64,000 bases of DNA, from NCBI GenBank assembly GCA_030264375.1, contig JASCQW010000119.1, forward strand, positions 8,606,137 to 8,670,136, in the 5' to 3' direction. This DNA is from Carcharhinus longimanus. Taxonomy: Eukaryota. How positions within the stretch are numbered: position 1 is the stretch's first letter; each line of letters starts with the position of its first letter. A model generated the notes under the pieces. That model was not told the DNA's origin. It did no database searches and saw only the letters and a list, made by a program, of their open reading frames with translations. This document shows, piece by piece, positions 5,140 through 61,341 of the stretch. Both the position numbers and the translations under genes were made by a program.

Positions 5140-5166
5140 AGGAGAAGCTGCGTACATGCGGAGACG
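5140..5166 (+). CDS. 27-nt micro-exon, (E)EKLRTCGD
   Basis: ttttttcag|AGGAGAAGCTGCGTACATGCGGAGACG|gtaagt. Confidence 0.85.
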
Positions 5167-5349
5167 GTAAGTAGCTCTTCACAGAACGTTACCATAGATC
5201 GTGTGAACACAATCACATAGTCATTGGTGAATGTGTGTTGCCGTACATGCATTTAGGCTGAATAATTTATGTGGTGGTTCCAACTTGGGAAGAAAAAATA
5301 ATGCGTTCATCTCAAAAATTACCTTTGCTAAAATTCATGTCGCTTTTCT

Positions 5350-8300
5350 TGACAGCCTTGGGCGCATAAAAAGGTGAATGGATAGCACGTTTTGTATATA
5401 GAAGCGGAGTCCCATATGGCACATTGCATGCAGGTTCCAGGGTGAAGGACATTTCTTCCCAGCTTGATGAATATTAGAGTGGCTGCGCAAAGATACAGCT
5501 TTTGTGGTCCATGTTGGGAAAACAACATATAAACAAACACGACTCTGAAGAAAAAAGTTTAGGGATTATTAGGAGCTGAGATCTCAATTACTGAGAACAC
5601 TTTCATGAGTTTGCGACTCACGTGCAATGTGGCAAAGATGAGAGAAAAAAAAATGGGTGAAATGTGATTAAATCGTGGTGCGGGGATAAGGAGCGATATG
5701 TAATGCTGGGCCCGTCTCCCCTGAACCGATCTGCGACCCGGGCTTCAGGAAAAAAATAATAAGGTGTGCACCAGCATTTTAAATGAGTAGATGGGGGAGA
5801 AAACAGTTAAAATACAAGATATGTAATTGTTTATGAGAAACAAAACAGCAGTTTCGCGTGTGGAGTGCAGGGATGTCAAGTGAGTGATGATTATGAACAT
5901 AGATAAACGGAAGAAGTACACAGGGGAGGCTACTAAAGTTGCTGGAACTAATAAGAAGACATTTCGCTGAGAAAAGTTTAGGAACCTCGCAAAGGAGCAA
6001 ACCAAAAGAAGGGCAAAAATGAACAGTGGGGTACTTAATGCAGAAATGTGTGCGATGTGTTGAACGTGTGCAGTTAAATACATATTTTAAAAAGCTTTTT
6101 TTTTCGTAGATTGTAGTTTTGTGAACACATGTGTTCATCTCAGACACATGTCTGCAAGGCCACCCGATCTGGTAGCGAGTTATCTAAGGATCCGCGTCAT
6201 GTTGAAAAGGCAGGGTCTTGATCAGATGGGTTGGTGTTGCCTTGTTCGGAACGATTGTACTTAAATCGTTAGTAAGAAACAAGTTGCAATTTGAAGATGT
6301 AGGATCTGTGAGGGCCAATTTGAAGAAAAGCAACGTTAAAAGTCTGTGATAGGGGTCATGCAGACGTCTTTGAAGTCGACAGGATGTGGGGTACAGGATC
6401 GCCCAGCAGATAAAAAACGTTATATAAGAAATGCAAGGTTAGAGTGTTCATGGTTGATTTAAATATGATGGTGGATTAGGGGGAAAAAAATGGTAGTGGA
6501 TGGGAAGATTCTACACTTTGTACTGTTGACGAGATGCATTTTCTGAGCCTTTTCTGATTGAGCTGACAAGGGAGCAAATGATCCGTAATTTGTTGATGCA
6601 TAATGAGATAGACATTATTTGAAAACATAAATGAAAGGTACCCTTAGGAGTTCGGGATGGAAACATGATATCATTTACCCTGAAATCGTGAGAGGGCGAA
6701 GCTAAAATTAGATATGACAGTATTTCAGGTGAGAACATGCATATAGAAAGGCATGCAGGAGGAACTCATCAGAGTTCTTTGAAAATGTGTCAAGTTCGAT
6801 TTATGGTGGAATATCTATGGCAGGAGATTCTGGAAGTATCTCGGAAGACACAGCAAAACGTCATACAAACCACAGGAAAACAAATACTCACGGGAGGACA
6901 AGACAGCCAAGGCCGATGCGGGAAGCCAGGAAGAGTGTAAAGCCAAAAAGGAAGGAAAGAGCAGCAATGATCAATGGGAAGCCAGGCGACCACAAAGCCT
7001 TAAAAAAAAACTGCAGAGGGCAACTAAAACGAATCAAGGGGGAGGGCAGAGTGGAGATAACATATCAAAATAAGAAAGACAACAATATCAATAAAACAGT
7101 TTGCAGCAACTTTTTTGATGTAGAAAGGGAAATTGAGAGACAAGAGCGGACATTTGGATGTTGGAAAATGACACTGGAAAAGTTGAAATTGGGAAGAGTA
7201 AAATTGTGGAGATATGGAAATAACGCCTTGTATCGGCCGTCACGACGGAATAAATCAGCAGCATAGCAGCAATTGAACAGTTACGAACAGGGTTGAATAT
7301 GCTGGACATTTCTGGTGAAGGAATAGGGAAGCTGAAATGTCTGAAAGTTTATAAATCACCTGGAGTAAATGGACTGCAATTCAGAGTTCCAAAGGAAACA
7401 ACTGAAGAGAGTGGAGGTGATCACTGTAGAACATTTTGTTTTAAATCACTGGACTGAGGCACGTCCAGGACGACTGGTAATTAATCAATGCAACACCATT
7501 ATTTCAGAAGGAAGATAGAAAGAGACGGGAAATTAGAAGTTTTTACTATAACTTTGGTTGCAAGCAAGATTTTAAAGTCCATTATTAACAAATGAAATTG
7601 TAGAATATGTGTAAATTGCCTGTAAAATGGCGAAGTCAGCATGTATTCGTCAAGGGGAGGTCACACCTGACATGCCTGTGAGAATAGTTTGAATAAATAA
7701 TGACCATGTTAGACAAACAAAAGCAATAGTTGTCATTTTCTTCGATTTTCAGAAGTCCATTCACAACTTATCACATAGGAGGCAGCTTGAAAGAATAAAA
7801 AAAAACACTCATCAGGTTAGAGGCAAGGCACTGCATGAATAATCAAAAAGATCTTGACTGGTCTAAGGCAGAGATTTGGCATAAAATGATCTTTCTCACT
7901 GTAGCAGCCAGTGTCCAGTTGAGTTCTGCAGTTTTTAGAGCTGGGATTACGTTTACTCACTTCATACATAAACTGTGTGCTTCATGGTACTGAAGGCCTT
8001 GTGGCAAGGTTTGCAGATGATACATAGTTTGTAAGTAGACAATCAGTATTGACTACACAGGCTGGATGCAATATACCTTCCACCGTTTCGGGCAGTGGAA
8101 ATAAAGTTTCATATGGAATACAACCAATGAAGATGTGAGCTATACACTTTGGTTGGAAGTATATAGTGGTTGTTTTTTTTTTAAATAAGGTATACAAAAC
8201 TTGAAAACATAAAATGATTTTGGAGTTCAACTTCCACATTCTCCTAAGGTTAGCTTGAATATTGAGTTGGTGCTAACGAACACAGATGCATTGAAATAAT

Positions 8301-8850
8301 TCATTTCCAGAGGATGAGAGCTCAAGAGCAGGACTGTACTACTGGAGCTTTCAAAGGCTTTTGTCAGGCCACTGTTGGAATGCTCAGAACAATTTCAGGC
8401 TACATTTCTGAGAAAAAGATATTCTGGCCTTTGAGATTGTACAGAACAAGTTAACAATAAAGATCCCAACAATGAAAAGGTTGATGTATGACGAGCGTAT
8501 GAAGGGTTCGGATCTTTATTCAGTGGACTTCGGAAGGATGAGGGCTGATATAATTGCAACTTGCAGAAATCTGCATGGCCAGGATAGAGTGGATGTAGGG
8601 AAGAAGTTTGTATTACTGGAAAAGACTAGACTAGTTGGACACAGATTCAGATTGCTCAAGCCGCTCTTTCGAACCAAAATGATGATAAATTTATTCAGCA
8701 ACTGTGTGCCCAATGTATGAAGTTCATTTCCACAGCAGGCTGTGAAGGCAGGGCCTTCGAGTTAATTTATGACACAGACGTATGAGTTCTTGGTTGGTAA
8801 GGGAACAAAAGTTATGGGAAAAAAAGGCGGGAGAATAGGATTCCATTGTA
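5350..8850 (+). mobile_element. Long, heavily decayed CR1 LINE (ORF1 SGNH-esterase remnant, endonuclease, RT)
   Basis: ccagggtgaaggacat...gtggtccatgttggga (VVHVG of CR1 ORF1) ~5440-5520; tttgcagatgatac (FADD) ~8010; C-terminal ORF2 remnant in ORF 8472-8720; many stops and frameshifts. Confidence 0.9.
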
Positions 8851-11479
8851 GTGTATATTTGCTGGACAGAAGTTGGTAATTTTATTCTGGCATGTTTTTT
8901 TTTTGCGCACAATGCTGCGGATGCAGCCAAATGGTGAACGACCAGGGCTTTCTGGGGGTAAGCGTTTTTTTTCCACTTGGAACCTCTGCAACGAGATTGT
9001 TTCCATTATCTCCACATTAACGTTATCAACAATTATCCGTAAACGTTACTCACTGATTCAGCATAGAGAGAGAAACATGATGAACATTGCCTCAGCGACG
9101 AAGATGAAATCCCCCCAAATTGGCATGTATGCTTGAATAAGATGACGTCTCGCAGAGTTTGATCCTCTAGAAGTATGGGGAGTGGAGCACATATTACAAA
9201 GGTCTTTGTGATGTTCCTGCGCACTTCAAAATAAATGGGTTTTAAAATCTGCATCGTTTTATTTGTTGGCTTTTGTCTTAATGAGACCTGAGCTACTACA
9301 TGAAAAGTGTTGGTGAGCAGAGATTTGCAATGCAAGAAATATAGTACAATGCTGGTGTACATAATTGCATAATGTATTGTTTCATTATTCTCTGTCTGTT
9401 GGCTTCCTGCTGCCCAATTTCTCCAGCAAGAATTCAGGGACAAATGTTATTTCAAATATGTTGGACAGGCACTAAAACATTAAGAGAAATGTGGCTGCAA
9501 TTCAGTAAATAATTGGAAATTGGTATCACGACGTTTGAACAGCATCTCAATACAGCTCGGAATCTCATTGCGTTCACTATGAGAGCAGGCGAGCAGTGGG
9601 CCATTTTTGTTAATTAAGTAATCAAACTGCCCAGTGAGTTCGGAAACACTTAAGTTCAAATTGTGAAGGAGAGCTATGCCATTGACGAGACAAGTACATG
9701 TCCAAACGATGACACATCTTTCGACATAATTGCGCGGAAGTTAGCTGAGTTGCTGAAAACTTTGCATTCATATATTTCTGGCTCCGCGACAGACAGTGCC
9801 TTATTTTTGCAATGCGAAATGGAACACCTCCAACACGCTCATTCGAAGGCCACTTAGAACATCTCTAAGTCTAGCAGCTGGAGATAGAAGCGCATTGAGG
9901 TCTCCAACGACTAAAATTTATCATCAGAGCAACAAATTATAATGAAATTGAACTATATTTTGATCAGCGATGGGCGATGGAACAAATGCTGGGAATTCAC
10001 ATTAGAACAGTGCTCTTCGAAGAACGACGTTCCCCACCAGCTACTTGGTTGAAATAAGCATAGTTCTTTTTTTAAGCTTTGAACGAGGGACCGAGAGGCA
10101 TCTTTATACAAAGGGACGATAAAACAAATATATTTCCATATGTGTTCGGGCTCTATTACAATTAGTGTGCCTCCCCTTCCTCGAATTCGCATTTACTAAT
10201 TCAATAAGTATCTGTGAAGCAGAAGATGAATTTAATTATCGGTAGCCCTTTTTCATCCGCAGCAAGAAGGCTTTCAGTGCCCCACTGCACTCTTGCTTCG
10301 TTGATTATCAAAATCGCTCGTGAAAACTGATGAGTGTATTATGCAAGCACAACTTATCACTTTACGATTTATGGTCAAAAAGTGGTTCAAAGTGATGGCT
10401 ATTTCAATTCTGATCATGCCAGTAACTTCCCGAGAAGTACATTTACCATGAATTCAACGAATTATGCGTTCATATCATGACAAACGTGTTCCTGTCCATA
10501 TGTTGCTATCCTTAAAAATGAAGAAATAAGATGTACTGGAAATTATTTCTGCCTGTCGTTTCTGGTCACTGGTTATGATCCTTTGGAGAAGGTGCCATAT
10601 TTCTTAAATGACGGTCGTGAGAGCCCATTTTTTTCTCTTTCCAGTCAGGTCATCATGTGCCTTGATGGCACACACTTACTTTGCGATAAGCTCCCAAAGG
10701 TTCTGCGACAATATTAGGACACGGTATTGAATGTTTTGATTTCCAGATTACTCTGAAAGGTACGTTTTACCGTCGTGCTGTGACAGTGCTGCAGGAGTCG
10801 GTCATTGAGGAAATACAGATGATGTATCCGTGAGTAATAGGTATTTTTGGAATACAGAATCGAATTCCATAATCATTTCGTGCATTTGCTCTCAGCTGCC
10901 CGAACATCTCAGTTGCTCAGATGTTCAGTTGCATTAAAAAAGTGTGTCTTATATATCTGGCCAGAGCTATAGAGGTTCATGTCATATTTCTCATTGCAGA
11001 ATACCAAGTATTAATTTGCTGTTTTAGCCATTCCATGTGAAATGTTGTTGCAATGTTGCGAGTGCTGATTAATTGTTGGCATGATGAAAATGTCTTCAAG
11101 GTTTCAAAAATGGCGAAATGTCAAGTGGCTTTTTACAAGAGTCTAATAGCAGGCTTTGTTTTTGCCTTCGAAATAATGCACATTTTAACGTAAATTGATA
11201 CCTTAGAATTCCCAGTTGAGCTAATATGTCATGCGGATGCCTATATGTTTGCTTTGATTGTGTAATCAAAGTTGAGATCACATTAGCATCAAAATAAATC
11301 ATTGGTGCTGACAGATGTTGACGAATAAATCTGATTGCTGCAGAGGTCACCCAAAATGTGAAATGTCGTTTCCGTAGGAACGGCAAAACGAGCAAAAGTA
11401 CATTGTTGTATCGCTGCAGAAATGTATTAACATTTGTACTCTGTCAGTTCGTGAACAAAGATATGACTTCATTGCCAAT

Positions 11480-11790
11480 GACATTAAATTTTCACGAATA
11501 TATCGTGGTATCGGACCTTGTGGAGTTTTCAAATTTTCCCCATGTCTGCTTGTGTATCAGAAGGAGCTCCGGTTTCCTTCAGCAGTTCGAAAATATGAAG
11601 AATTGGTGTAATGACAATGCATTTTTTTTCCTTGCTCTCCAAATAAATATACATTAGATGGAGGAGACTTGATCAATGGGCAATGTTTCGAGGAAAACGG
11701 CGGGGCTGGGTGAATCCCTCTTTCAAAGAGTTGATGCTAAATCGATGAACCCAACGTTTCTGAGCAGTAGGACTCCATCGTTATGGCGTT
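11480..11790 (+). mobile_element. Decayed shark tRNA-derived SINE
   Basis: gtggagttt...ttccccatgtctgcttg...gctccggtttcct core shared with the better-preserved copies. Confidence 0.6.
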
Positions 11791-12051
11791 TATGTGTTGT
11801 GTGGTTGGGGAGAAAACAGTAAGTGCAGTCTGTTTCGTCGCAGCCATATCTTCATGATAGTGTTAGGCATTTCAATCAGTGCTGAACATTTTGCCTCATT
11901 TCCGTACTCAGATGTCTACTGAATAAATTCGAAACCAAAATGCCATGATGCGGACATCCATGAAAAAAATGGTTTGTGGTGAACCAGAAAATCTGTTTTG
12001 TTTGTTTTTTAATTTCATTTATTTACAAAAACAATACGAACTTTCAATTAG

Positions 12052-12078
12052 ATCAACGCACGAAAGACACCAAAGCAG
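12052..12078 (+). CDS. 27-nt micro-exon, DQRTKDTKA
   Basis: ctttcaattag|ATCAACGCACGAAAGACACCAAAGCAG|gtaaaa. Confidence 0.7.
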
Positions 12079-12362
12079 GTAAAACAATTTGAATGCCATA
12101 TGTGTAACAAAAATGAATCTAACTGGATGATTAAATAAAAATTACATTTTATGCGCAGCATCCAAATGTTGTAGTTTACCATCATGGACATTAATTCAGA
12201 ATTTACAGACCACACAACCCGATTTTAATTTCCCTACTGTATAATTGTCAAACGTCGTCTGAAATGCATCTTCGGTATTTACTTCATCAGATCAATGTTT
12301 TAGCAATCGGTTATCAGTGAGGAATCATCCCCATGTCACCTCACCATTCTTCTCTGTGTATG

Positions 12363-12398
12363 CAGAGACAGAGAGATAGGGAGAGGAAGGGAGGGAAT

Positions 12399-12429
<31 letters not shown>

Positions 12430-12472
12430 GGACAGACAGGCAAACAGACAGAAGCAGAGGGAAAGGGAGAGA
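12363..12472. repeat. (GA)n/(GACA)n simple repeat
   Basis: Direct reading. Confidence 0.9.
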
Positions 12473-12989
12473 TTGTGTGTTGGTGGCAGTATGTTGTGTT
12501 AGATAGTCGTCAAAACACCATTTGCATTTTTCACAAAATATGTTTTTTATTATTATTTTAAGACTAAAGTTCGATTCAACTGCTCGTTAAATCCCAATTA
12601 TTACTGAAAATGCTGAATATGTGCACTGTATTTGCATTATTAGTTATATTCTCACTCACAATAAAATGTAAGTTCTAGCAAATCATAATCTCGTTAGCCA
12701 AGAAATGTTTCAACCTTCGATATAAATAATGGGTAATGCAAATACATTAATGCATATGTGACGCTGACCTATAGCACTTGCACGCAAGAAAGTGTTTTTC
12801 GTTACCTTTTTCGTTTCTGAATCGCTTGCTGAGCTCCATTCGTTAAAACAGACAGCGACGGGGAGAAAACGTGCCACTTATGTGCTACAGACGGATTCTT
12901 AATGCAAAGTTCACTCATCTGGCACTATTGAGCAGATTGTAATTAAGGCAAACATTCATAATGTATTTTTTTTAACGTTCCATTATGCA

Positions 12990-14050
12990 CACTAGCATGA
13001 TTTGCCCAGAGTTGGATGAGTCCATTGTGGAACCGTCAATCCATTTCATTGGTGGCAGATGAAGCTTGAGGAGACAAGGGCAAGTTTCCAGGAGCTTATA
13101 GCCCTTATTTTTCCTGTCAACGTTTCGCATCAGCTTGCTCTCTGTGGTGGCATTCTTGGTGCTCATCCCCTGCCCTGATGCTGGTCCTCGGCTCTCGGAC
13201 ATTTTCTTTTTTTTTGTCAGTATTTCCCAGGCATGCATTCAGATGGATTTAAGGTCGGACTTGAAGAGTTGCGTCAACACTCTTGGTGCTCTCTTCCCTT
13301 ACTCAGCACCTAGTAGACGTCCAGTACAGTCGTCTAGTTTGAGACATGCTGAAAATATCATGCTTCTTGTGGTACGGATGCATTGTGGTCAACGATTCAG
13401 TGATGTGGACTTTGGCTCGAGGGAGAACAGTTACTTTGGGACCTCTACCGTGCCCATAGATATTTGAGGAGGCAGCACGACCTGTACTGCTCCAGGATAT
13501 TGACGTGCATATACAACGTCCATGAGCGAAATCTGAGGACAGGTATCATGCCTGTTCTCTAGATTATAAACTTGGGACATTTTCCAGTTCCCGGAATTCG
13601 AACAATCTATCCCTCTGTAAATGGAAAACTGATTTGGGAGTCTAAGAGGGTGCTGATAATCATTGTCGTGACTGTTCTTTTTTTGCCAGTAGGTTCCCAC
13701 CTTGTGTAATGTGGAGATGTGCGCCTGGAGCCTCGCCTTCAATTGTCATGACTGCCCGACTGCCCTCTACGGTGTCGCGATGTTAAACGTGGATTAAATC
13801 GTCTTATGAATGTTTATAGCAAGGCGCAAATGTCTTGCCGTAATCTGGGAAAATGTTGATACTATTTTCAACCGCACTTTCGCATGTGCTGAGGTCCTTG
13901 CCGAGTCCATAGACGACTGTCCAATTCGAGAGATTGTCACAAACATGAATCTCGTCTGCAGTCCCTGGTTGATGAACAGCTAACATTTTAATCTGCCATT
14001 TATCTCCACATTGGCACGGAGCTTGCGGAGTGTGAGATGAAGGTTGCAGC
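12990..14050 (-). mobile_element. Decayed RTE-clade LINE, 3' part
   Basis: Minus strand reads SWTLYMHVNILEQYRSCCL, matching the RTE motif ETWTLY...LE.FH..CLR, and an FIC zinc-knuckle remnant near 13060. Confidence 0.7.
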
Positions 14051-15199
14051 AAAATAGATGGAATAGTGCGCTTCCATGGGTCATGCCTGCCTCATACCTC
14101 TCTGATTGTAAGTTACATCTGTGGTGGTTCCCTTTTTCAGAAAAAAAAAACATCGTATAGGTACAGGTTGTTCTGCGCAATTATTTTATTTGCAAAAAAA
14201 AAGTAATATTAACCCTCACAGTTGATGGTCATGTACAAGATGTAATTCAAGAAGGGATTTTGTGAATTTCTCTGAAGTTGCACATTGCAAACATCAAGCC
14301 CACTTTGCCCCATTGTGGCAAGTGCAAACTTAGTTCAAAATGAGTTAGAAAATGTGGGTTGTTTATCATCTTTAAGGTCTTACTTGTGGCTGAAAGTTTG
14401 TTAAGTTTATATTATGTAGTCACTAGCACCAGGGCAGGAGCTTTCAAGAATAATTGATCTTAATTCATATTAAGCATTATGCAAACGATAATGAAATGAG
14501 AAACTCTATGCGGAACATCTCAAAACTATGGCGTCGATTTTGTGTGCTGTGTTGCAAGACGTTGACATATGTAGCAAAATATCTTTGGGAGCCCGGATTT
14601 TTGAGATGGAGCAGCGGATATGGTAAAATTGCTAGTGCATTTGCAAGGAATAAATGTTATGCATATTCATGTAGCCTCCAACTTCACAGGCAGTAAAGGA
14701 AGAGCGGACAGCTAGACTGATCAGGATGAATAGTCAGGCAGTGCTGGAGATCTTTGTGCCTATTTTTCACAAAATGTACATACAGCTTCGGATGGAATTG
14801 TGCGGAATGGTATCTGAATGGACAATGACAATGGCAGAATTTACTGTGTCATGATTGTCCCTATTGAACAGGGAAATAGTAAAATGTTTGGAAATGCAAC
14901 AGTTTTTTTCGGTGATAGAAAAGAAGCGGTAATAGATAAGCGTGTCTTTGTCTGCAAAATATATTCCAGGATGGTGTTGATGCCTCAATTGTCATGTGTT
15001 CATTCATGTTTGGAATGTTTTACAGGACATTGTGAAGAGTAAGGCACATTGGTTCAGATGAAATTTGCAAAACAAAAGACATTAGGTCCTAAAAGCATAA
15101 ATTAAAATGTTGATGCTGTCGAGAACAAAGACATAAAACATAATGATCTCAAAATACCAGCAAGTGGTACGTGCTAGTCAGAGTAGAAAAAATAAACCT

Positions 15200-16060
15200 C
15201 TGGGTCAGTGGGGGGTCTGGGGTTCGGGTTTAAGATTTGTGGGGCAGTGCGACTAATTCTCGGGAAGCTTGAAATAATGCAGGCTGGATTGGTTAAAGCT
15301 GGGCAGGGAATGTACTTATCTGTTACTGTGACCATGTTCATGAATGGATCCATTTTAAAAAATAAAATGGCAGGGGGAGTTTACTTACACAAGGAGTGAA
15401 AGGATGGGTCAGCAAAGAGAAGAAACAAAGTCGGTAAGGGAAATAACGATAGTGTTAGGTAGTGACATCACGGGCCAGAATCAAATGGGCCAAAAGGAAC
15501 ATGTCGTGGGAAACTGTTAGGTAATGTTTCAGATGCAAAACTTAAGGTGTTTCACCTTAATGCACGTAACATTCACAATCATGGATGACTTCATCATGTT
15601 AATATATGAAAATTGGTAGAATGTGACAGGCATTAGAAAAGTGTATCCATCGGTGGGAAATGGATTTCCGCTGATAGTCAATGATTAGGGACGACAACCA
15701 GAAAAAGAAAAGGCAGGTTTTCAACTCTGTTTAAAGTGGCATTTAAAACAACAATGAGAAATGATATTAGTTCCGAAGATCAAGAATCAATATGCATAGA
15801 TCTGCGAAACACGAAGTGGAAAAAAGTTTACTCGATTGTTAAAAAAAAATTACATTTAGTAGGGATGTTAAGAATTACAACATACAGTATAGTCAATGTG
15901 TATGCATGACGGAGCAACAATAATTTTAATCATTTTAACAGATTGAGGAAAGCAAGTTGCCACGATACCATATCAGAATATTTTCTAGAGTTTATACATT
16001 TCTGCTTCCTGAACTAATAAGTTGAAAAACAAAGTCGGAAACATGGAATCGGCGATTGAT
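15200..16060 (+). mobile_element. Decayed CR1 ORF1 end / endonuclease fragment
   Basis: cttaaggtgtttcaccttaatgcacgtaacatt (LNARSI-like start of the APE domain) at ~15541; gaatcaatatgcataga (ESIW.E-like) at ~15785. Confidence 0.65.
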
Positions 16061-16080
16061 TCATACATTACCACAGGGTT

Positions 16081-16420
16081 TCATCATAGAATCCCTACAG
16101 TGCAGAAGGAGGCCACGAGATCCATTGAGTCTGCAGTAACAATAATTCTACTCAGGGATTATCCACGTATCGTCACACATTTATCTTGCACGTCCCTGTA
16201 AGCTCCGCATCTCGGGACGCCACGGGACAATCTAGTACTGACCAATAAGTGCAACAAATGTTGTGCCTTGAGAGGAAACCGTAGCATCTGGAAAAAAATG
16301 CCAACACATTCACAAGGAGATGTTACGAACTTCACACGGACAATGACCAAATCCAGGAATCCAACCTAGTTCCTGGAGCTGTGAGGCAACAATGTTAATC
16401 CCTGCCCATTGTACCACCTG
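16081..16420 (-). mobile_element. Shark tRNA-derived SINE (HE1-like) with CR1-type tail
   Basis: tcatcatagaatccctacagtgcagaaggaggcca tail ... ggaatccaacctagttcctggagctgtgaggc head. Confidence 0.85.
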
Positions 16421-18700: not shown

Positions 18701-19314
18701 TGGAAAGTCTCCTGAGCAGCAATGCAAATTGAAATAATCATGGAGCCTCTACTCTCAGTGCTCATAGATGGAGATAACCACTAGTGATGATACGAGGAAT
18801 GAACAGGAGATCAAGGTGACACTAGCCTTATAGGTCGGCGCACATAATTATTTCAGGAAATTATAATCTGTAATGGAAAAGAGGATAGCATGTGTTTAGG
18901 TGATGTCAACATGTCACCTACATTTTTTTAGACCATACGAGAAAAAAAATGTCTCTACTCAAGCTTACACAATTATTAAACGAGGCGAGCCTGAATGTTA
19001 ATAAGCTCCTGAAAAGAGTGAGGCAACTAGGACTGAGATGAGGGAAAATAAAAATTGCGCTCGATAATTCTCAACCACGTTGCTCAGGTTGACAATTTGA
19101 CGTATACATTCCCGTCTGTAGCTTTACGATACTTGAGAATCACACAAAATATTGAATTATTAGGATGTTGCAGTTGATTGTTGAATGCATCAAAAAGCTG
19201 AAGGGTCTTCCTATCGTTCCGTTTCTTTTCATTTTGTGTTTTAAAGTAAGAAATGATAAAGTCAAATATGCATAGAATTCTGGCTTAACGTCATTCCATT
19301 TTAATTATTTATAG

Positions 19315-19350
19315 AGTTAAAGGGACTCAAAGAAGGAGGAGCAAAAAAAG
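19315..19350 (+). CDS. 36-nt micro-exon, ELKGLKEGGAKK
   Basis: attatttatag|AGTTAAAGGGACTCAAAGAAGGAGGAGCAAAAAAAG|gttaag; weaker donor, but fits the 27-27-36 period. Confidence 0.65.
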
Positions 19351-44922: not shown

Positions 44923-44949
44923 AAATCGAAGATTTGCTTGAAAACACAG
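44923..44949 (+). CDS. 27-nt micro-exon, KIEDLLENT
   Basis: tttttattattttgaag|AAATCGAAGATTTGCTTGAAAACACAG|gtaagg. Confidence 0.85.
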
Positions 44950-47836: not shown

Positions 47837-47863
47837 CAAGCAAGTTGCTAGCAAAAGAAAAAG
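47837..47863 (+). CDS. 27-nt micro-exon, ASKLLAKEK
   Basis: ttatcattcgcag|CAAGCAAGTTGCTAGCAAAAGAAAAAG|gtaaac. Confidence 0.85.
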
Positions 47864-50479: not shown

Positions 50480-50670
50480 CAACATGGTGGCACCACGTCT
50501 GCACTGTTTGGTGACAAATCCATGGGCACAAGGTCAATCCCCGATTTGGATGACTGCTTATTTGAACTTTGCATTTTCTCCTCGCGTCTGTTTCGGTTCC
50601 CCCTGCGTTCTCCGTTTTCAGCCCAGTCTAAATATTGAAGTTTCGGTGGATTAACCAAGCTAAACTGGAA
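50480..50670 (+). mobile_element. Highly decayed SINE
   Basis: catggtggcac head, ggtcaatcccc B-box remnant, tttgcattttctcctcgcgtctg core. Confidence 0.6.
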
Positions 50671-50869
50671 TTCATTTCCAAAAATTTGTAAATTCAGCAG
50701 ATTGTTTTTTTTTTCTGTCAATATGTCCGGTTGCGATGGGAAGACCTGGCTGTGATGCTCTGCCTGATAGTTTCGAGTAGCATCCCTTTGATCTTTATGA
50801 ATTCTAAGGTGATTTGTGCGCAGAGTCGTTCCAAATGAATACAAGTATTGAACAGAAGGGATATGGTGT

Positions 50870-51620
50870 ACCTGAGTCTACATCATTGAAATGATACTAC
50901 TTTTGATAGCTGATGGCAGAACAGCATGTTTGCAAAATGGAATCAAGAGAAATTAACACCTTTCAATTACATAATTAGCACCGATAAATTCATTCAGATA
51001 GATAACATCATCCTATTCATTCAAAGCACTCCAGAGTACTATATGGTCTTGTCCTTGGCCGATTTTTCTTTTCAATGCTTTCATCAACGAAATTCCTAAA
51101 ATGTTATTTTCAGTTCTGGAGCCATGTGCTGTTCAGCAAAATCTTGGCTCATCAGATAATGAACCACTCAGAAGCCAAGCCTGGGCAACATTAAGGTTTG
51201 GGTCGAAAGGCATAAAGCTATATTCAGCCGACCCTAGTGTCAATGATGTCCCAACTCCAACGAGAAGGAAATTAACCATCACTCCTTGAAATTCAATAAT
51301 GTCACCTCAATTGTTCTGTGCTCACTCAACGCATTTGAGTGTGCATTGAGGAAAAACTGTCCTGGCTGGATCAAGCAGGTAACTATTGTTCCTACAAAAC
51401 AGATCAGAGACTGGATATTCTGCAGCTATTAGTTTATCTGCTGACCACCATTCCACCGATAACACTACTCGAAGTGCATGTTCGAAGTGAAAATCTGAAA
51501 ATCACGACGGCAACAAGATGATGTGATTCCACTTCTATGCCCTTATATTAAACACATTTAGAAGACAAACCCTCCACAAGTGACATGAAATGGTAGCAAA
51601 GTGCATCATCCATAATATGC
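50870..51620 (+). mobile_element. Decayed L2/CR1-clade LINE RT fragment
   Basis: ggtcttgtccttggccga...tgctttcatcaacga (GSVLGP..F..FIND-like) ~51045-51090. Confidence 0.5.
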
Positions 51621-51714
51621 ATGTGACCAAGGCTCATTTGCCAGTAAAATGCACCTTAACACATATTACACGGTTCACACCAAAGAACAGCGGTTTGGTT
51701 TGGCCGTCAGCAGT

Positions 51715-52500
51715 TTGATTTGTTTTGTTTTATTGTCATTCCATTCATTGGAAAACAATGATTATTATTGTTTCCTGTTTGTTCTACAGACAAAGCATAC
51801 CGTTCATGAGGAAGTAGGGAGGGACTGCAGAATGTAGTGCGACAACCATAGCTAAGGTTCAGAGAAATAGCAACTGAACATTTGGTTGGTCAATTGGAAA
51901 CTATGATGGCAACATTTAAGGCGCTGTTCTATTGTCAGTTGGTAAGCGATTTCGGACATTTGTATTTTCTACTCCATTGAAGAAGGGAGAAGAAAGTATT
52001 TCCGTTGTGCGTGGTGTTCTTGATTGTACGAGTTACTTGTTTGAGTTAGGAGGAAATAATAAAAAAATCAATGGATTGGAGACTGCTGTGCCTGATGAAC
52101 TGAACATATTTCATAACATTTTATGGCTGTCTGCCGTACTGATCATTGCAGAAGACATGACAATCTGTGATATGTTTTATAAATAATGCTTTCCAAAGTG
52201 CATTTGTAGAAGTGGTGAGAGCCGCAGCAGTTGCACCGAATTACCATCGCCTCCTCAGGAAATAGGCAATGTTTTGCTATCTTGATTGTAACATTCACGT
52301 GGAGGGTCCATGGCAGTCGGCTGGTCATCTGGACACCTAGATTCTTGAAGTGCTCAAACATTTTCACTTCATTCCCGCTGATGTAGACAAAGGCACGCCT
52401 CCACGACTCTTCCTGCCGATAATTATCCATTTCGTTTTCGTGACAATGAGTATGAACTTATTACCGTCACACAAATTCATCATAGTATCTATTGTCAATT
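51715..52500 (-). mobile_element. Decayed Rex1/Babar-like LINE
   Basis: Colinear with 30195-31015 (tacagacaaagcataccgttca; atctggacacctaga...ttgaag). Confidence 0.8.
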
Positions 52501-52559
52501 CCCCTTCAATCCATCTGTAGACATATTAAGTAAAATCAATGTTTAAGTACCAAATAATG

Positions 52560-52760
52560 CTTAAATTAAAACTTCAATTAAGTTACTGCGAATTTCCCAT
52601 TCGCCACACTCCGGCACCTGTTCGGATCATTGCACCTAACCAGCACATTTTTTCAAACTGTGGGAGGAAACCGGAAAACCCATAGGAAACCCATGCAGAC
52701 ATGGGGAGAACATGAAAACACTACACAGACAGATCCCCAAGCCGAGACTCGATATGTATG
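52560..52760 (-). mobile_element. Shark SINE fragment
   Basis: gcacctaaccagcaca...ctgtgggaggaaaccgga...gaaacccatgcagacatggggagaa. Confidence 0.85.
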
Positions 52761-54399
52761 TGTTGCAGGAAGTTTTTTTTGTAAATGGGAAATCAATGCT
52801 TGCCAACAGTTCGCTGCATGAAACGGCAGAACCACAAGTGCAGGGTATTTTGCAGATGGACTATAAATAGTGGCTAAACAGCGACAGTCAGATCTTCTCA
52901 ATTGTGCAGATGTCTTCCAAAATGAAACGGAGAGCAGAACGTTTGATTTTGAAATTCATTTATATCACGAGGCAGGTTGTCTTACCAGTATACATGGGAT
53001 TTCGCAATATTTACCCATTCAATTCAAACTGACTGAAGACTAGCTACATTGACTTTCAATCCCAAAAAAAGCCATGTATAATTTGCCATAAATTTGCAAA
53101 AAGATGCAAAAGAAACTCACAAACAGTCCACTATCTTTCTTCACTGGCAATTTATTTCAAATGCATTTCTTGGGGCAAAAGAATATTACACTCATACGCG
53201 TATCAGCACCGCAAAAGAGGCTCATCAGTCGTGTAAGAAAATGCATTTAATATTGTTTAAAGTCGGATGACTTTCATTGTAATTTCAGCAGGAGACAGCA
53301 ATTCAATATCACGTTCTGTCCAATGTGTTGCCTATAATTGCTTGAAATTCTACTTTTTCAGCTTTCAAGATTATTGTCTTCTTTTTTTGTGGAACAAATT
53401 TACGTATGTTTAACCTTATTATGTCTTGGGACTTTGTGCATGTATGTCAATAATATTTTGCATCATTATGTCACTTTTGTAGACTTGACATGGTTTATAA
53501 AGAGACTTTACATTTTCTATCATAGGAAATATACACATATTTGCAAAAACATGCCTGCCGTTGACTGCAAGTATTCTTTTTCAAATACTTGTTAAGATGC
53601 ATTTAGTCATTAATATTTACAACACACATTCATAAGAAGAGATACTCAAAACAAACAATATTAGAGGCTCATTCTGTGCTGTCACATCGATACAAATTTG
53701 GTGGTACAGTCGTCATATTACATATGCTGGGTTCGATGTGCGAATAGAATCAAGAGCCATAATAAAGCGTCGGTTTTCAGTGTACATTTTTTGGGTGCCT
53801 TCGCTCCCGAATTCCTGGATTGTACCGACATGGACGATAATTTTTGAATTAGCAGTGATTAGCATAATTTTTCATATATGAATTGAATTCATACCATGAA
53901 CAAAAAACATTGTATCTCCTTTTTTGTGAGTTGTGTGTTCAGATGAGAGCATTTGAAACATCACCACCTTTCTGTGCAATCTTGCCAATAATAAAAGAAA
54001 CATTTCCTCCGTATTTGATGACCGGGCCCTGCATGGCAGCTATTGGTTAGCTATTTTCCAATACTATTTCAGTATCAAATCTCTGTATTCTTCTTGGCAT
54101 TTTCTCGCGATCTAATCACGACCGTAAGGATAGAACTTCTCAGTTTTCTTTTCGAGCTGTCACTTCTTTTCTTTGTGAAATTATTTGTTCCCTGTTGCGC
54201 ATTTCATATAGTTGATATGATTTGACCAGTGGACAAGCTGTCCCTCTGCATCTCCAAATAGCCCAACAAAGAGAATATAAAATGTCCAAGCGCAGATTCC
54301 TAGGCCTGTACATGAACCGTCTGTTACTCGAATAAACATTTAAGAACTGTGGCGTGGATCTTCTAGCTATCCAAATGGCCTGTCATGTGGAGGGAACAA

Positions 54400-57310
54400 T
54401 AAATGAAACGTTCTTGTAGCGCCTTTGATTAACAAAGGGACAGCAAAGTTGCTAGAAGTTTATAAAAAAAATCCCTAGATTGTCAGCGGGACATTGCAGA
54501 GAAAATATGTGTGCAATTCGCAGAATGGTATAAAAATAATAAGATGACATTTTTATTAGGTGATTTCAACTATCCCAACATTAACTGGATTAACGAACAT
54601 ATTAAGGTCTTAGATGGAGGAGGTTTCGTAAAATGTATGCCGGAAAATGTATTAGATCAATAGCTAGATGATGCAACAAACATCGGAGCTGTGTTGGATC
54701 AAATTCTTGGGAATGAAGATGGGCAGGTGGTTACTTTGTTGGTGGTGGTGGTGGAGGGGGACATTTTGATTTTAGTGACCTCAACATGTTTCAATTCGAA
54801 TTTGTTATCGACAAATAAATTGTGAAGTTGCAGAAAAAAAAAATGTTTTGGGGAGAGCAGATTTTAAGGAAATTAGACCAGATCTGGCCAAGTTAAACAA
54901 GAACGAATTACTTGTGGTGATATCAAAGGACAGTGTCCCAAGTACAGTNNNNNNNNNNNNNNNNNGGACTTTTACAAAGATGAAATGTGGAAGATAAAAG
55001 CCCAACATATTCCCTTAGGATAATAGGACGTTCGAACAAATACAGAGATCCATGGAAGACCAGTGACATTCAGGACACAATTGTGTGAAAAACAGAGGCT
55101 GTTCAGAAGTATTAGGGATTGAAGTCTGCGGAGACATTAGTGAATGGAAGTGCAGGATATAACTTAGTAAATCAATTAGTAGAGCAAACGTGGAACTGAG
55201 AAATTCCTTACTGGTTAAAGTAAAGGAGATGTTAATGTATTTTGCAAGTATTTCAATGGGAAGAGGATAACCAAGGAACGAGTAGGGCACTTTGGGGATC
55301 CAGGGGGAAATCAGTGGGTGCAGCCAGAGTGCATTCGACGCGTGTTAAATGCATGTTTCACATCTGTCTTCACTCATGGGAATGGGGAGGGAATGTGAGG
55401 CTTTAGAGTAAACTGTCATCGGGCGTGACAAAGTACTGGAGGTATTGGTGGGCTGAAAAGTGGACACATCTCCAGATCAGGATTAATTGTGTCCCAGGCT
55501 GATGTGTGTGGAAAGTAAAGAAATTGCAAGGGCTCTGAACCAGTTTTTTTTTTAATTCTCTCTGATGAGTAGGTTGATGCGAGAGGAAAGGAAGAACATT
55601 TAATGTAGTTCCACTGTTTAAAAAAATTGAAGGAAAAAAAAAACACAGGGAACTACAGGCCAGCGAACCTCACGTCAGTGTTTGGGAAACCACTGGAGAA
55701 GGCTCTGAGGGGAGTATCTACCTCCATTCGGAATGAAAGTGTCGTCCAGGGATTGTCAGCATGGTTTTGTCAAAAATTGCTAACTTTTTTTTGAACTTGT
55801 AATCGACTGTGTGGATGAAGGCAGTGTGGCTGATGTAGTTTACATGGATTTCGTCAAATCCTTTGAAAAAGCCTCGAATGGGACAATTTTTTTAAGGAAA
55901 GCAAATTGCATGTCTTTGACACAAGAAAGGCTTACATTAACTCTGCGTTTATTTAGTGTGAAACTCACCTAGTCCACACAATCAGGCGATTGTTCTGGAC
56001 AGTGCATCAGCCAGCATATGTTTTTTTTTCAGAACGTGGGAGTAAACTGGAGCAAAAGGAGGAAACCCACGCAGAGACGGGGAAAATATGCAAACTCCAC
56101 ACAGATAGCGACTAAAGCCGGGAATTGATCCTGAGTCCCTGGAGCTGTGATGCAACAGTGTCAGTCACTGCGCCACTGTGCCGTCCACGAAAGCAAATGC
56201 AAAGGGGATACAGGCTGATATGATAAATTGGATTCATAACTGGCTTTGTGGTAAGAAGACAAAGGTTGGCGGCAGATTGCTGCTTTATTAAACAGTGACC
56301 AGAGGCGTGCCTCGGGGATCAATAGTTGGCTCCTTTGGTGCTTCATTTATATAAACGGCATAAACCGTTGTCTGAGGCGCTAGGTCAGTAAGTGTGCCGA
56401 TGGCTCAAAGCTTGGCCGGTTGGTTAGCAATAAGTTTGAATGTCTTGTTGTACACGGAAACATAGACGAAATGATCCAATGGTCAAATAAGTGGCAGATG
56501 GAAACTGACCGAATAAGATGTGAATCGGTGCACTTTGGACAGAGTATTTTGACAAGGCAACATACTATGATAGATCTGACACTAGGAAGTCCTGGAACAA
56601 ATAGACGTTGGCATGTTGTTCATGGAACTATGAAGGCGGGAAGGCAGATTAACATGGTAGTGTAAAATACATGTGACATTCACAACTTCATCAACTGGAG
56701 TACAGGCCACAAAGACAGAGACGTCATGGTAGAGCTGCACAGAGCTCTGATGAGGCGCCAACTAGAGCATTTTGTGCAGTTCTGTTCGCCACATAACAGG
56801 AAGGACATGAAATCAGTGGAGAAGGTGCAGAAGAGATTCATAGGGTTGTCTGGGACAGAAGTTTTCCGTCATGCTGATAGTTTGGAGAGGCTTGATTTTT
56901 TTGTTGGCAGGAGTAGAGAATATAGAGGGGCGACCTGATTGAAGTGTTTAAGATTTTGAGAGGCAAAAGCAGCGTGAATAGAATGCAATTGTTCCCTTTA
57001 GTTGGAGCCTCCGTTTCGAGAGTTAAATGAGTGGGGTCGGAGATTTAAAGGGAATTTCAATAAAATCTATCGTCTCAGAGTGAGGCGATCGCCTGTAATG
57101 GATTGTCAGGGAGGCGGATGGAGGCGTGATGTGTACATTATTTCAAAAGTATCTGGATGATTAAGTGCGCGCCATAATATTCATGGGTTTGGGCCTAGTG
57201 TTGGCAAGTGGGATCACGTGGGCAGGTCAGGGAATTCGGGCACCTTCGCAGACTCGATCGTTAAAGGTTTTTTTTTGCATTGTATTGTATTGTACTTCTG
57301 CGATTCTGTG
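54400..57310 (+). mobile_element. Decayed CR1 LINE ORF2 and 3' UTR
   Basis: ggtgatttcaactatccc (GDFNYP) ~54560; aactacaggccagcgaacctcacgtcagtg (NYRP..LTSV) ~55650; gatgtagtttacatggatttc (DVVYMDF) ~55832; ORF 56726-56938. Confidence 0.93.
55907..56188 (-). mobile_element. SINE inserted into CR1, with target-site duplication
   Basis: gaaagcaaat at 55897-55906 and 56189-56198 flank the SINE body (gaggaaacccacgcagagacggggaaaa). Confidence 0.88.
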
Positions 57311-57467
57311 ATTCGAGTGGGATTTCTTTGTTTTATCCTGAATCACCCAGGAAAAGGAGACATGGGTTCAATCGCTGCATGTGAATGCTATCTGACTTTT
57401 GATCCATACATTTTTTTTCTGTCTAATTAATTTCTTATGTAACCGTCCCTTTGCCATTTTATTTTCA

Positions 57468-58470
57468 GTAAGAAGTCTCACAACACCAGTGTAAATTCCA
57501 ACGGGTTAATTTGTTAGCACGAGCTTCGGGAGAGCTGTCCCTTCATCAGTTGAGTGTCGAGTACAGATCACAAAGAGGGCATATTTGACACATACTCAAT
57601 TACAAGATGATGGTTGGGATGCTAATCTTCATAGCGAAACAAGTGTTTACATTTGCAGACAAAGCGAGTGGAGAGAGGGTTAAGCACAGCTTAAAGATGT
57701 TTATATTATCTCAAGCCAGGAGAGTGAGTAAGATTTTTCAATCCGAGGCAACTCGTGGGGGTTATAAGTCGTGTGACATGAACCCAAGATACCGGTTGAG
57801 GCCGTCTTCCTGCGTGCAGAAACTGGCTATCAGTTTCTGCATGGCGATTTTGCTTTGTCATGTACCTTGACGACCGCCTTGCCGCACGCTTACTGGAAGC
57901 TCAGATGACGTATGCCCTAGGTTGTGAAAGTGTTCTGCGGCAGAAAGGGAGTACTCCTGCCTGAAGAACACTTCTGCCTGGTGAATACTTTAACGTCGAG
58001 GACAATCAGCCTCTGATGTTCGGGCAAGTGTTCTCCAAAACACACAACAACATAGAATCGCCAAACAGAAACTGGTAGACAAGTTTCGCATAGAGGACGA
58101 CGGCCTCAAATGTATCTTCGGTACACGCTACACTATCTGTAACCCCGAGGACTTTGCCGCGGTTTGCAAAATCTTACGAACAGTCCTGACTTGAGACAAT
58201 TCATATCTCTTTATCGTGTGTTTAACCTCTCCACGAGCATTGTCTGCACCTGTAAAGAGTTGAGTGTTGTCAAGACTCGCATTCCCGCCATTATCTTGGA
58301 ACTGAGCCTCTGTCGAAAGATTCCTTATTTGAGAACAAACATCTCTATTCACCTGACGAAGGGGCAGCGTTACGAAAGCTCATGCTACAAAAAAAAATGT
58401 TGGACTTTAACTAGTGGTGTGAGAATTCTTACTGTGCCTACCCCAGTCCAACGCCGGTATCGGCACACCA
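57468..58470 (-). mobile_element. Penelope-like element with inverted terminal repeats
   Basis: 57468-57556 (gtaagaagtctcacaacaccag...cccttcatcag) is the approximate reverse complement of 58347-58433 (ctgacgaagggg...ggtgtgagaattcttac); decayed GIY-YIG ~57830-57900. Confidence 0.85.
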
Positions 58471-59027
58471 TTTTATTTTGTTCATATGAAAGTGTTTTTT
58501 CGTGTTGATTTTCATTTTATCTGTTTTTCTCTGCATGTGTATTAACATATAATTCGAGAAATATATTACTGTGCATATTTACACATTTCTTTGCTCGTCT
58601 ATTGGTCCATCGGTTTTACCACTGTTAATCTGTATTTCAGCTCCAAACATATGCCGGCAGGCGGCATTGTCCGTTCTGTTTTGTCCGTCCATATTCTAAG
58701 TTTCAAAAAAAAAGGATCTTGGAATGAGAGAGGAATTGTGCAGTTGCAGGAGGAAAAAAAAGTGCTTAGAGAAAAGAAGTTGAAAGCTATAACAAATGGT
58801 TATTTTCCAAATGTGTAGAACCATTATGGCAGATTTCCCTCTGGTTGTGGACATTTTACGTTATCGTACTATGATGCTCAGAGCAACACCTCGAGTTTAA
58901 CAAAACTTACAATAATGTAAAATGCCAATACTATTTATCAATTTGCAACTGAATTGCAAGAGCGAAATTTGATTAGCGGTGGTTTAGGAACAGTGGACGT
59001 CGCAGAGATATTTGTAAGTTATTAAAG

Positions 59028-59054
59028 ACATTGGGAAAGCTCTAAACAACCTGA
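59028..59054 (+). CDS. 27-nt micro-exon candidate, DIGKALNNL
   Basis: gttattaaag|ACATTGGGAAAGCTCTAAACAACCTGA|gtaaat; weak polypyrimidine tract. Confidence 0.55.
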
Positions 59055-61305
59055 GTAAATACCTGGAATCTGGCGCTTATATGATTTAGTACTCTAAACA
59101 TTTCAGAAGATGTTAATATTTCTGGAAGAAAGTACTTGTAATAATGTAGCTTGCCATTGAGGAATTGAACGACAGTTCAAGAAGGTTATGTTAAACTTGG
59201 AAAAGCAAGTGGTTCTGCCTTCCCTCGAATGTTGTGCACGGTGCTGGGAGAAATACTTTTGAAATGATGTGTACCCATGTGGGAGAGTGTCTTGGAGGTT
59301 CAGCCGCATGAATGCAAGGATAAGGAACTAACGTTTTAAAAGAACAATTGTAGCAGTTGTAATTGTTTCCATTAGAGAAGAACAAAAAAAAAAGGATTAG
59401 AGATTGATGGAATAGTCAATCGCCGGAATGTCACAGCTCTGCATACCACGAACTGAATCGTGTGGATTAAAAATAATTGACAGAAAATGCACAGATGATT
59501 TGGCCAACCATATGTATTAACACCAAGGAACTTTGGAATCTGGAATGGACACATTTGTCGTTGTTGGAGGTTGTTCATCCCAACAATTGAAGCTCCAACT
59601 GCATTGCAATTTCAAAATAAATCATGTGCTAGGCTCTGTTAAAAAGGAAGAGGCAGAAAATCAGAAATCCAAGAGTGGCTCGATGAGCGGAATACCACCT
59701 TTTGTTCCATGATAATTTTACTACTTTCATCAATCTTTGATTCAAACTTTACTACCAATATTGACAACAGCCACTGTGAGTTCAACCTTTTATTTCACTG
59801 TACACAAGAAGTAGCCTCTCAACTGTCCTTCAGCAATCTTCCGAGAGGAAATGTATTCCCGTGATAATCACCCATGTCCACAGAAATAAGTGCTCATATC
59901 CGTGGAATCCCCAAACAATATAATATTCTTTATCTTTGTTTTTTTTCTGCCTGCTGTTGCAAGCAACACATTTCAGAGTATGGTTTAATATGCCTCTCGT
60001 TTCATTTCATATATGATTAATTTACAACTGAACATAAGAGAGAACTGCATCACACCAAATATCTCCCTTTCCTTTGTGCATGGCTACCACCAAAGGCGTC
60101 CGTATCTGAATAGTACTAAATACCGAATTAAGCTTGTCCACAAATTAGTGATCCAAGTGATTGTACCTCCATGACGGAAGTTGTGAGATGCTGGTGCTTC
60201 AACCTTCCCAGATAACATCAACTCTGGTTGCTGTTGTTCACGTCACACTGTTTAATTGCACACTTTTCGAGATACCGATCTGCCACGCGAGGAATAGCTT
60301 TGCTAAACCTTTTGTTTGACAATCCGAGATGTCAATAATGTACGCATTTACATTATTTCTGTGCTGAAATCTTTTTGTCATGCTAATTTGCTGCCGTTAA
60401 CATCAATGTTAAATTTGCACATATTCCAGTGCAACTCATCTAATTGCGAGAAATGTCCAGTGCTGATACACGTTATTAATTAAACTTCAAAATATTTCTT
60501 AATAATCAATTGGTGGCTTATTCCAATGATGTGCTACGTCGTGCATTATGCATTTCAAGTTCCAGTACTTCATTATTATAGCTCGTTTTTCCGAAAATAA
60601 TAAAAAAAATCAAGTAATCTACTCAGCCATGTGATAATATTGCCTGACTTCCCGTCGTCCGTATTTAATTTTCCTGCCTTGCACTCTGATCCGGATCGAG
60701 CCAGTCTGTACCCTGTTCACTCCGTTGAAATCATTGTTCCGTGATTACTTCACGATGAGGTGTGATTGACTTTACTCTGGAACTTTTTGAAATAACACCT
60801 CTGTGCAAACCTTCCCTGCCATAAAAAAGACAAATTAAAGAAAAAATCTGAATAATCGCTCGGACGTAAGTAGCATGATGCCAGCAATGGAAATACTTGT
60901 TTCATCGGACTCTTTTTTTTTCAGAACGATGCCACTGTTGCAGCTATTGATTCATAAGCATATACAAACGTTTCCCCATCTATTGTTCAATTGTCAGTGC
61001 GTTGATGTCCATCCTCGCCTTCCATGTCGTAAAAGTAAATGAGATAACGATATAATAAGTTGACTGTTCGTATTTTCCTTCGATTGGTACTTCTTTCGTA
61101 GCTCTGATTTTTTTTTTTCAACGAACTGCCAAATTCACCATGTATTTGCGAACAACACGGCTGTCTCACAACTTGGACATTGTACAATGGCGATGTATGT
61201 TGGAACTTGTGAGAGTATCAATGATGAATTACTGCAGATGCGTTATGCAGAACAGGAGAACGTACATGGCATTTTTTTTCGTAATAATTGATATCTGTTT
61301 TACAG

Positions 61306-61341
61306 AAATTCGTAAATTAAAGGAAGCGTTGGAGAACAAAT
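61306..61341 (+). CDS. 36-nt micro-exon, (K/E)IRKLKEALENK
   Basis: atctgttttacag|AAATTCGTAAATTAAAGGAAGCGTTGGAGAACAAAT|gtaagg. Confidence 0.9.

Follow-up and report, generated by a model that had tools for sequence, protein, structure and literature searches.

A shark gene that may splice at least 100 phase-1 microexons into a coiled-coil rod with a terminal B30.2 domain

What kind of protein do the tiny exons scattered across a 64,000-nucleotide stretch of the Carcharhinus longimanus genome encode, and by which unit did their array grow? The stretch, here called the window, occupies positions 8606137–8670136 of contig JASCQW010000119.1 (C119) in a genome of 2.68 Gb; window positions are counted from its first base, and positions outside it are given relative to window base 1 unless a contig position is named. 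A preliminary description proposed that a module of three exons of 27, 27 and 36 nucleotides (nt), coding for about 30 amino acids (aa) with one cysteine (Cys), had been duplicated in tandem. The reading favoured here, which we hold to be probable though not secure, is a different one. The window would be part of a gene of about 421 kb, gene B, in which at least 100 exons, in phase 1 and 27 or 36 nt long, are spliced to encode a coiled-coil rod followed by a B30.2/SPRY domain; the product would likely be a membrane-less, cytosolic parallel dimer with Cys facing the core.

Fourteen of the 15 exon starts listed in the preliminary description have an AG acceptor, a length of 27 or 36 nt, a GT donor (GC at 43416) and no stop codon in phase 1; only the one at 26311, treated below, falls away. 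When candidates in the window were scored with a splice-plus-peptide model, for which the neighbouring genes formed the training set, 16 of the 484 plus-strand candidates of 27 or 36 nt scored at least 8, compared with none of 357 on the minus strand. These numbers exceed what is expected by chance; in all, the window likely carries 19 exons. The strand bias is also seen over 1.06 Mb, where candidates scoring at least 9 number 174 sense and three antisense. The exons of gene B are collinear with those of a neighbouring paralogue, gene A (score 880 versus 325 ± 33 in 15 order shuffles), and 21 A/B exon pairs display codon-position constraint, with identities at the three positions of 141/207, 151/207 and 113/207 (Fisher p 1.2e-4).

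The exon array of gene B extends from about −8.6 kb to +407 kb, with a terminal exon of 172 codons beyond it, giving a gene of 421,154 bases with the window near its 5′ end and the terminal exon about 350 kb downstream. One hundred exons encoding 1,016 aa have been called, after removal of five false calls across genes A and B and the addition of three paralogue-supported exons to each; as 41,113 of the 421,154 bases are N, this count is a lower bound. The terminal exon matches Pfam SPRY (4e-11), its best solved match being BTN3A1 (E 1e-17), and it is probably spliced to the window exons; in the mechanism proposed here, at least 100 phase-1 microexons would be joined to it in one transcript. 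Six B30.2 exons of the gene B type lie on the contig between 6.3 and 11.3 Mb (E 1e-37 or better). Four of the six genes (A, B, C and D) were read in part, those at 10.7 and 11.3 Mb being left out, and the terminal exons of all four are above the Pfam SPRY cut-off. Gene A lies upstream of B on the same (plus) strand, 68 kb away, and covers contig 7.28–8.53 Mb, or about 1.25 Mb; a contiguous reading of 620 kb gave 128 exons, the remainder being sampled. Genes C and D are on the minus strand. Splicing is supported by database models from relatives: a catshark RefSeq protein, P0010, matches three exons of gene C in genomic order, and isoforms in catshark, chimaera and electric ray differ by single 9-aa blocks.

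The lengths of the exons appear to be matched to the geometry of a coiled coil. Hydrophobic residues fall at positions 2, 5, 9 and partly 12 of the 36-nt exons and at position 4 of most 27-nt exons; the 2/5/9 pattern, already described for the 36-nt exons of the window, holds in gene B as a whole (fractions 0.72, 0.59 and 0.79). Across the 22 exons from −3911 to 61306, power at a period of 3.5 residues is 31.0, compared with 15.1 ± 6.0 after shuffling of exons (p 0.023, 300 shuffles) and 7.6 after shuffling of residues, and the same trend is seen in A, C, D and the rest of B, more strongly in the larger sets. Since the power falls on exon shuffling, the heptad periodicity depends on exon order. 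The segmented coiled coil foreseen in the preliminary description is thus supported, and a Pro-Gly exon at 36881 fits the segmentation.

Across the four genes the commonest unit is 36 + 27 nt, that is 21 aa or three heptads in register (47 of 115 units); units of 12 aa (28/115), 39 aa (15/115) and 30 aa (14/115) also occur. The 39-aa units (n = 15) have hydrophobic peaks at 2, 5, 9, 16, 23, 26, 30 and 34, a pattern that suits heptads together with a single hendecad spanning 23 to 34. The 27-nt exons in the middle of a unit carry a hydrophobic residue at position 2 in 16 of 21 cases; first, last or only ones do so at position 4 in 86 of 111. In the 30-aa units (n = 14), which may include 39-aa units with a missed exon, the pattern is smeared past position 19. 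These patterns point to three exon types that would set the geometry: a 36-nt type with a2/d5/a9/d12, a 27-nt type with a4/d7, and a 27-nt hendecad type with 2/5/6/9. An account of trimeric coiled coils describes four-residue insertions as tolerated stutters, and insertions of two or six residues as breaks in the helices (PMC4786415). In gene B, 36 + 27 nt would add three heptads and a further 27-nt pair (39 aa) would keep the coil continuous as a tolerated stutter, whereas a single extra 27-nt exon (30 aa, +2) would introduce a break, as at the Pro-Gly exon at 36881. The helix rise is about 0.15 nm per residue, so that 1,016 aa would form a rod of at least 150 nm.

If the triplet is not the repeated unit, what is? 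From the similarities between exons, the higher-order repeat of the window is likely about 11 exons long, present twice, and older than the A/B duplication. The first copy (1..28786, plus strand) starts about 3.9 kb before the window, at −3911, and the second occupies 36881..61341 on the same strand; both are also found in gene A. Exon similarity in B peaks at lag 11 (0.50 identity, versus 0.32 at lag 3, which is background), and in A at lag 10–11. Matching copies in A and B are 61% and 69% identical, compared with 51% and 53% for the first against the second copy of the same gene; as the former are more alike, the block would have been duplicated before genes A and B separated. Of the 119 36-nt exons just four have a final T, and each of these closes a block of about 11 exons, a fifth, unpaired T-ending candidate having been among the false calls removed. 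The two in the window are the exons at 28751..28786 (plus strand; paralogue in gene A identical at 24/36 nt) and 61306..61341 (plus strand; paralogue 25/36 nt), the ends of the first and second copies; the two exons match each other at 83% over 47 nt. In a self dot-plot of the window this exon pair aligns, but the introns share dispersed repeats only, and are therefore unable to date the duplication. Growth of the gene by duplication of exons, as first proposed, is nevertheless supported.

The Cys residues are predicted to lie in the core of the coil. Outside split codons, 57 of 76 lie at the predicted d position (expected share 0.154) and five at a; core residues at a are mostly Leu or Ile, and d is occupied chiefly by Leu, Cys or Lys. 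Dimers are described as the form that best tolerates long polar side chains at core positions (PMC13580157), and a Cys at d is described as giving an interchain disulfide in a parallel zipper (PMC6423718). The predicted placement accordingly suits Cys pairs that face each other in a parallel dimer better than it suits acylation sites on the surface, and core positions argue against lipidation, which the preliminary description had considered, as a general role. Formation of disulfides hinges on cellular location: in the reduced cytosol the Cys would act as small core residues, and on oxidation disulfides could lock the dimer.

Where, then, would the rod reside? Among 150 of the 154 plus-strand open reading frames (ORFs) of at least 62 aa upstream of B, those crossing 10-kb locus borders being cut, none matched an immunoglobulin (Ig), RING or B-box domain. 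The gap before B comprises 68,379 bases, of which 1,451 are N (98% sequenced), and holds no splice-bounded phase-1 exon with a hydrophobic 18-mer. Between D and A, the same three domains were found in none of 150 of 184 ORFs, a result that longer N runs make less secure for A and D. The lack of an Ig, RING, B-box or membrane exon upstream weakly favours a cytosolic rod. Gene A has a candidate first coding exon at contig 7257709–7257819 (plus strand, locus L174), splice-bounded and 111 nt long, with a Met near its start, a hydrophilic body, a coiled-coil-like end and no signal peptide; no counterpart is detectable before B or D. In gene B, the well-scoring 27-nt exon that lies furthest 5′ (plus strand; L041, some 8570 bases ahead of the window) contains a Met-Gly in frame, flanked by A at −3 and G at +4, which is a possible start. 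Myristoylation at this Met-Gly was considered and dropped, as the exon type is also found inside gene D (17/27 nt).

Two other locations have to be weighed. The same rod-B30.2 protein might be secreted, its core Cys linking the chains permanently through a ladder of disulfides, as part of an extracellular fibre of mucus, gel or matrix; we regard this as unlikely, if worth keeping in mind. The Cys content of the rods (2.4–2.7%) and its concentration at d would suit such a fibre, as would the signal-like starts of teleost long-coil B30.2 proteins and the hydrophobic, signal-like starts of two RefSeq relatives, P0153 from skate and P0034 from chimaera. The teleost proteins fall outside the clade, however, and signal-like starts also arise here from read-through of polypyrimidine acceptor tracts into known microexons, which places limited weight on the N-termini of P0153 and P0034. 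A weak Met-plus-hydrophobic candidate lies 17.6 kb before the window, but a control of equal length also gave one match; the candidate first exon of gene A is hydrophilic, and the solved B30.2 relatives are intracellular domains. It is less probable again that the rod is the cytoplasmic tail of a butyrophilin- or BG-like membrane receptor whose Ig and membrane exons were missed. BTN3A1 is the best solved match, candidate exons of 21 nt at the 5′ end of gene D resemble the BG tails described in PMC4046983, and five V-set Ig exons lie on the same contig at 1.15–3.63 Mb, 3–5 Mb from the cluster. The genome-wide V-set search scored 150 of 928 candidates, which leaves room for Ig exons in the cluster. 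Set against this are the complete lack of Ig matches in the ORFs scored upstream of B and between D and A, and of any convincing membrane exon in a gap before B that is almost fully sequenced.

Two further alternatives concern the gene itself rather than its product. Gene B could serve gene A as an alternative 3′ half, used when A's B30.2 exon is skipped, in which case the rod would be longer and a choice of two heads would exist. B starts abruptly where the middle of A matches, scans found no first exon for it, and the two genes share a strand 68 kb apart. The B30.2 exon of A is nevertheless intact, with a normal acceptor and stop, and the scans would miss a first exon of B that is short or non-coding; this possibility seems to us a shade more doubtful than the receptor tail. 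Least probable of all, to the point of being nearly discounted, is that a 27-27-36 module carrying one Cys every 30 aa was duplicated in tandem. Two of the five window units do comprise 30 aa, with a single Cys lying in their first 27-nt exon, and the Cys residues are on average about 30 aa apart. Measured between successive 36-nt exons, however, the window units are of 30, 48, 30, 39 and 39 aa, the gaps between Cys residues are 30, 42, 36, 8 and 32 aa without a period, and the Cys residues occupy the non-homologous exon positions 7, 7, 1 (a split codon), 7, 6 and 8. Only four of 115 units in the four genes fit the module, and similarity at lag 3 is at background. One listed triplet contains the 26-nt non-exon at 26311, and another omits the exon at 40775. 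Exons at 40775, 44521, 44923 and 47837 stand outside all the listed triplets, yet all four have collinear paralogue exons; the exon at 61306, previously given solely as the end of the span, lies outside them too. These paralogue-supported extra exons erase the proposed period.

Several points weigh against a cytosolic, dimeric rod-B30.2 product of gene B. The joining and order of its exons are inferred, no transcript of this species having been seen; its first coding exon was not found in scans that a short or non-coding exon would escape; and the hydrophobic starts of P0153 and P0034 would point to secretion. In the window itself, three of six Cys lie at d, with one more in a hendecad exon. 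The a/d register was derived from the same exons that it describes, and the reference work on stutters and beta-layers concerns trimers, while the oligomeric state here is a prediction. The unit counts are blurred by missed exons, gene B alone having 41,113 N, and the 21 exon pairs were picked partly by protein similarity, which favours the codon-position result. For the repeat of about 11 exons, a p of 0.0002 relies on slots assigned by eye, and unguided self-alignment at the same offset is borderline (p 0.057 in B and 0.082 in A, 1,000 permutations).

A bolder extension of the favoured reading, which we offer as speculative and rather unlikely as it stands, is that the array constitutes a splice-level code. 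In this scheme 36 + 27 nt adds three heptads, a 27-nt pair a stutter and a lone 27-nt exon a hinge; skipping of exons would adjust both the length and the bending of the rod, which is tipped with B30.2 heads and at least 150 nm long, and the ladder of core Cys would lock it through disulfides on oxidation.

Among known families, the closest in design are the chicken BG genes and the soluble 'zipper protein', in which, as here, a long heptad coiled coil is built from many tiny exons; BG genes are likewise described as a tandem family with a variable number of exons and an alternatively spliced tail (PMC4046983, PMC5938342). They differ in having signal, IgV and membrane exons, 13–36 exons of 21 (sometimes 24) nt, and a last exon given over to the 3′ untranslated region, as these accounts describe them. 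In the genes studied here, 27- and 36-nt exons number at least 100, the last exon encodes B30.2, neither an Ig nor a membrane exon was found, and lengths are 0.4–1.25 Mb; candidates of 21 nt are seen chiefly in the 5′ end region of gene D and close to the ends of genes, the exons of gene B being of 27 or 36 nt. Butyrophilins (BTN3A1, BTN2A1) share the order of heptads followed by a C-terminal B30.2/PRY-SPRY domain, the location of the rod being here a prediction, but are described as having only a few heptads (PMC4046983, PMC5938342); their Ig domains and membrane helix were not found here. The gene would work like the inner tail of a butyrophilin or BG protein without the membrane part, the rod serving as a spacer or scaffold for paired B30.2 ligand-binding heads, but no Ig, membrane, RING or B-box segment was found upstream. 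TRIM proteins with B30.2 (TRIM7, TRIM21, TRIM58, pyrin) also combine a coiled coil with a B30.2 domain of matching fold, and RefSeq gives relatives of these genes TRIM-like names; RING and B-box were found neither by motif nor by Pfam upstream of B, A or D, nor by motif in the database proteins of the clade. Leucine-zipper B30.2 proteins are also represented by the enterophilins.

Skate, catshark, electric ray, basking shark, epaulette shark and chimaera supply the closest proteins in the databases. A quick IQ-TREE tree, built from 70 of the 159 extracted B30.2 domains with isoform duplicates dropped and 55 RING, B-box or Ig proteins as background, groups genes A–D with seven proteins of cartilaginous fishes in a single long-branch clade (SH-aLRT 99), which leaves the teleost long-coil B30.2 proteins outside. 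Those teleost proteins, named 'DDB_G0290503' or 'nucleoprotein TPR', resemble the products proposed here in having a rod of more than 1,000 aa with SPRY, many isoforms and generic names, but differ in their signal-like N-termini, a Cys content of 0.9%, and isoform differences of 28 and 321 aa (two pairs). Three teleost proteins, P0054, P0120 and P0090, have a signal-like start, a long coil and B30.2, fall outside the clade, and possibly arrived at a similar design independently. In the Atlas, chordate clusters that combine a long coil with SPRY also go by generic names. The AlphaFold2 model of the skate relative P0153 consists of long helices followed by a B30.2 fold (mean pLDDT 81). Schistosome micro-exon genes (MEGs) also have a coding region made mostly of short symmetric exons, but encode small secreted proteins that are not known to have a heptad rod or B30.2, and no homology is expected.

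If the genes are expressed as read here, sharks, rays and chimaeras would possess a cluster of giant genes, each 0.4 to about 1.25 Mb long and with 100 to several hundred microexons, of which the databases contain only short fragments under wrong names. No long orthologue appeared among 400 and 210 database candidates, and a further search yielded only 14 distant BTN/TRIM-type proteins among 7,995 scored; these results, confined to lengths of 302–2000 or 518–2000 aa, are weak negatives. A literature search, covering listings, the starts of abstracts and few subscription papers, returned no description of this microexon rod-B30.2 family. Were the reading true, the family would offer a natural test of how exon length relates to coiled-coil register, and a possible link to the evolution of butyrophilin and BG heptad tails. 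The window itself contributes the exon grammar, the core-facing Cys and a likely duplication of about 11 exons predating the A/B split; the triplet by itself would be immaterial.

The exons of the window, all phase 1 and on the plus strand, can now be given in order, with identities to the collinear paralogue in gene A in brackets. The 27-nt exon at 5140..5166 has Leu at 4 (heptad a) and Cys at 7 (d; 17/27 nt). The next, 12052..12078 (27 nt), has weak splice sites (score 0.2) and matches a candidate in the corresponding gene A interval at 14/27 nt (p about 0.07), and is retained provisionally only. It is followed by a 36-nt exon of the a2/d5/a9/d12 type at 19315..19350 (20/36 nt). Three 27-nt exons then lie close together: 22521..22547, with Leu4 and Cys7 at d (20/27 nt); 22672..22698, linker-like (14/27 nt, with the same short intron spacing); and 23292..23318, of the hendecad type with hydrophobic residues at 2/5/6/9 (17/27 nt). 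The 27-nt exon at 27663..27689, which precedes a 36-nt exon, has Leu4 and Lys7 (19/27 nt); a perfect (TTC)26 microsatellite occupies 27505–27582, 80 bases 5′ of it.

After the end of the first copy, the second opens with the Pro-Gly exon at 36881..36907 (27 nt), a predicted helix break whose paralogue lies in the matching gene A interval (17/27 nt); its Cys is a split codon shared with the 28751 exon. The 27-nt, Leu4-type exon at 37685..37711 (model score 12.7) has no paralogue in the matching gene A interval, which includes a 100-N gap. A 36-nt exon at 39342..39377 (24/36 nt) is followed by three of 27 nt, at 40775..40801 with Leu4 and Cys7 at d (18/27 nt), at 41491..41517 with Leu2 and Cys6 of the hendecad type (18/27 nt), and at 42159..42185 of the Leu4 type (20/27 nt), and then by the 36-nt exon with the GC donor at 43416..43451 (30/36 nt). 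The remaining 27-nt exons were not among the starts first listed: 44521..44547, with Cys at 8, for which the candidate in the matching gene A interval has the same Cys place and the same donor (12/27 nt); 44923..44949, hydrophobic at 2/5/6 and of the hendecad type (20/27 nt); and 47837..47863, with Leu4 and Lys7 (22/27 nt).

Several candidates were rejected. At 26311–26336 (plus strand) there are 26 nt between AG and GT, with no Cys in the phase-1 frame and no well-scoring 27-nt counterpart in the matching gene A interval; the stretch follows a poly-G run, and splicing it in would shift the frame. No indel is seen there in an assembled contig of run X1, whose start is only 26 bases before; the contigs of this run, which is not on record as RNA, equal window 25900–28860 without differences where aligned. 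A 36-nt candidate with a good splice score at 20904–20939 (plus strand) matches, in another frame, a dispersed repeat with nine tblastn matches (one being itself) on both strands within 1.36 Mb, which we take to be a CR1 LINE. A similar exon mimic is also present in gene A; such remnants may be a source of false exon calls, or of exonisation. Candidates at 41010, 23348 and 54524 had low scores and no paralogue.

Elsewhere in the cluster, the 5′ part of gene D (contig about 7.07–7.26 Mb, minus strand; L195–L197, L151, L164, L167, L168) appears to continue as candidate exons of 21 and 18 nt, the equivalent of single heptads as in BG tails, which approach the start of gene A head to head. Between B and C, downstream of the B30.2 exon of B, L059:8685–8960 (plus strand) gives a weak Ig I-set match (E 0.037, below the cut-off). 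L174:3825–4196 (minus strand) holds a fragment matching a retroviral env family (Pfam TLV_coat, E 2e-9). On another contig, C81, a dense cluster at about 86–102 Mb contains dozens of ordinary B30.2 exons, of which one at 94.27 Mb is the next closest to the clade.

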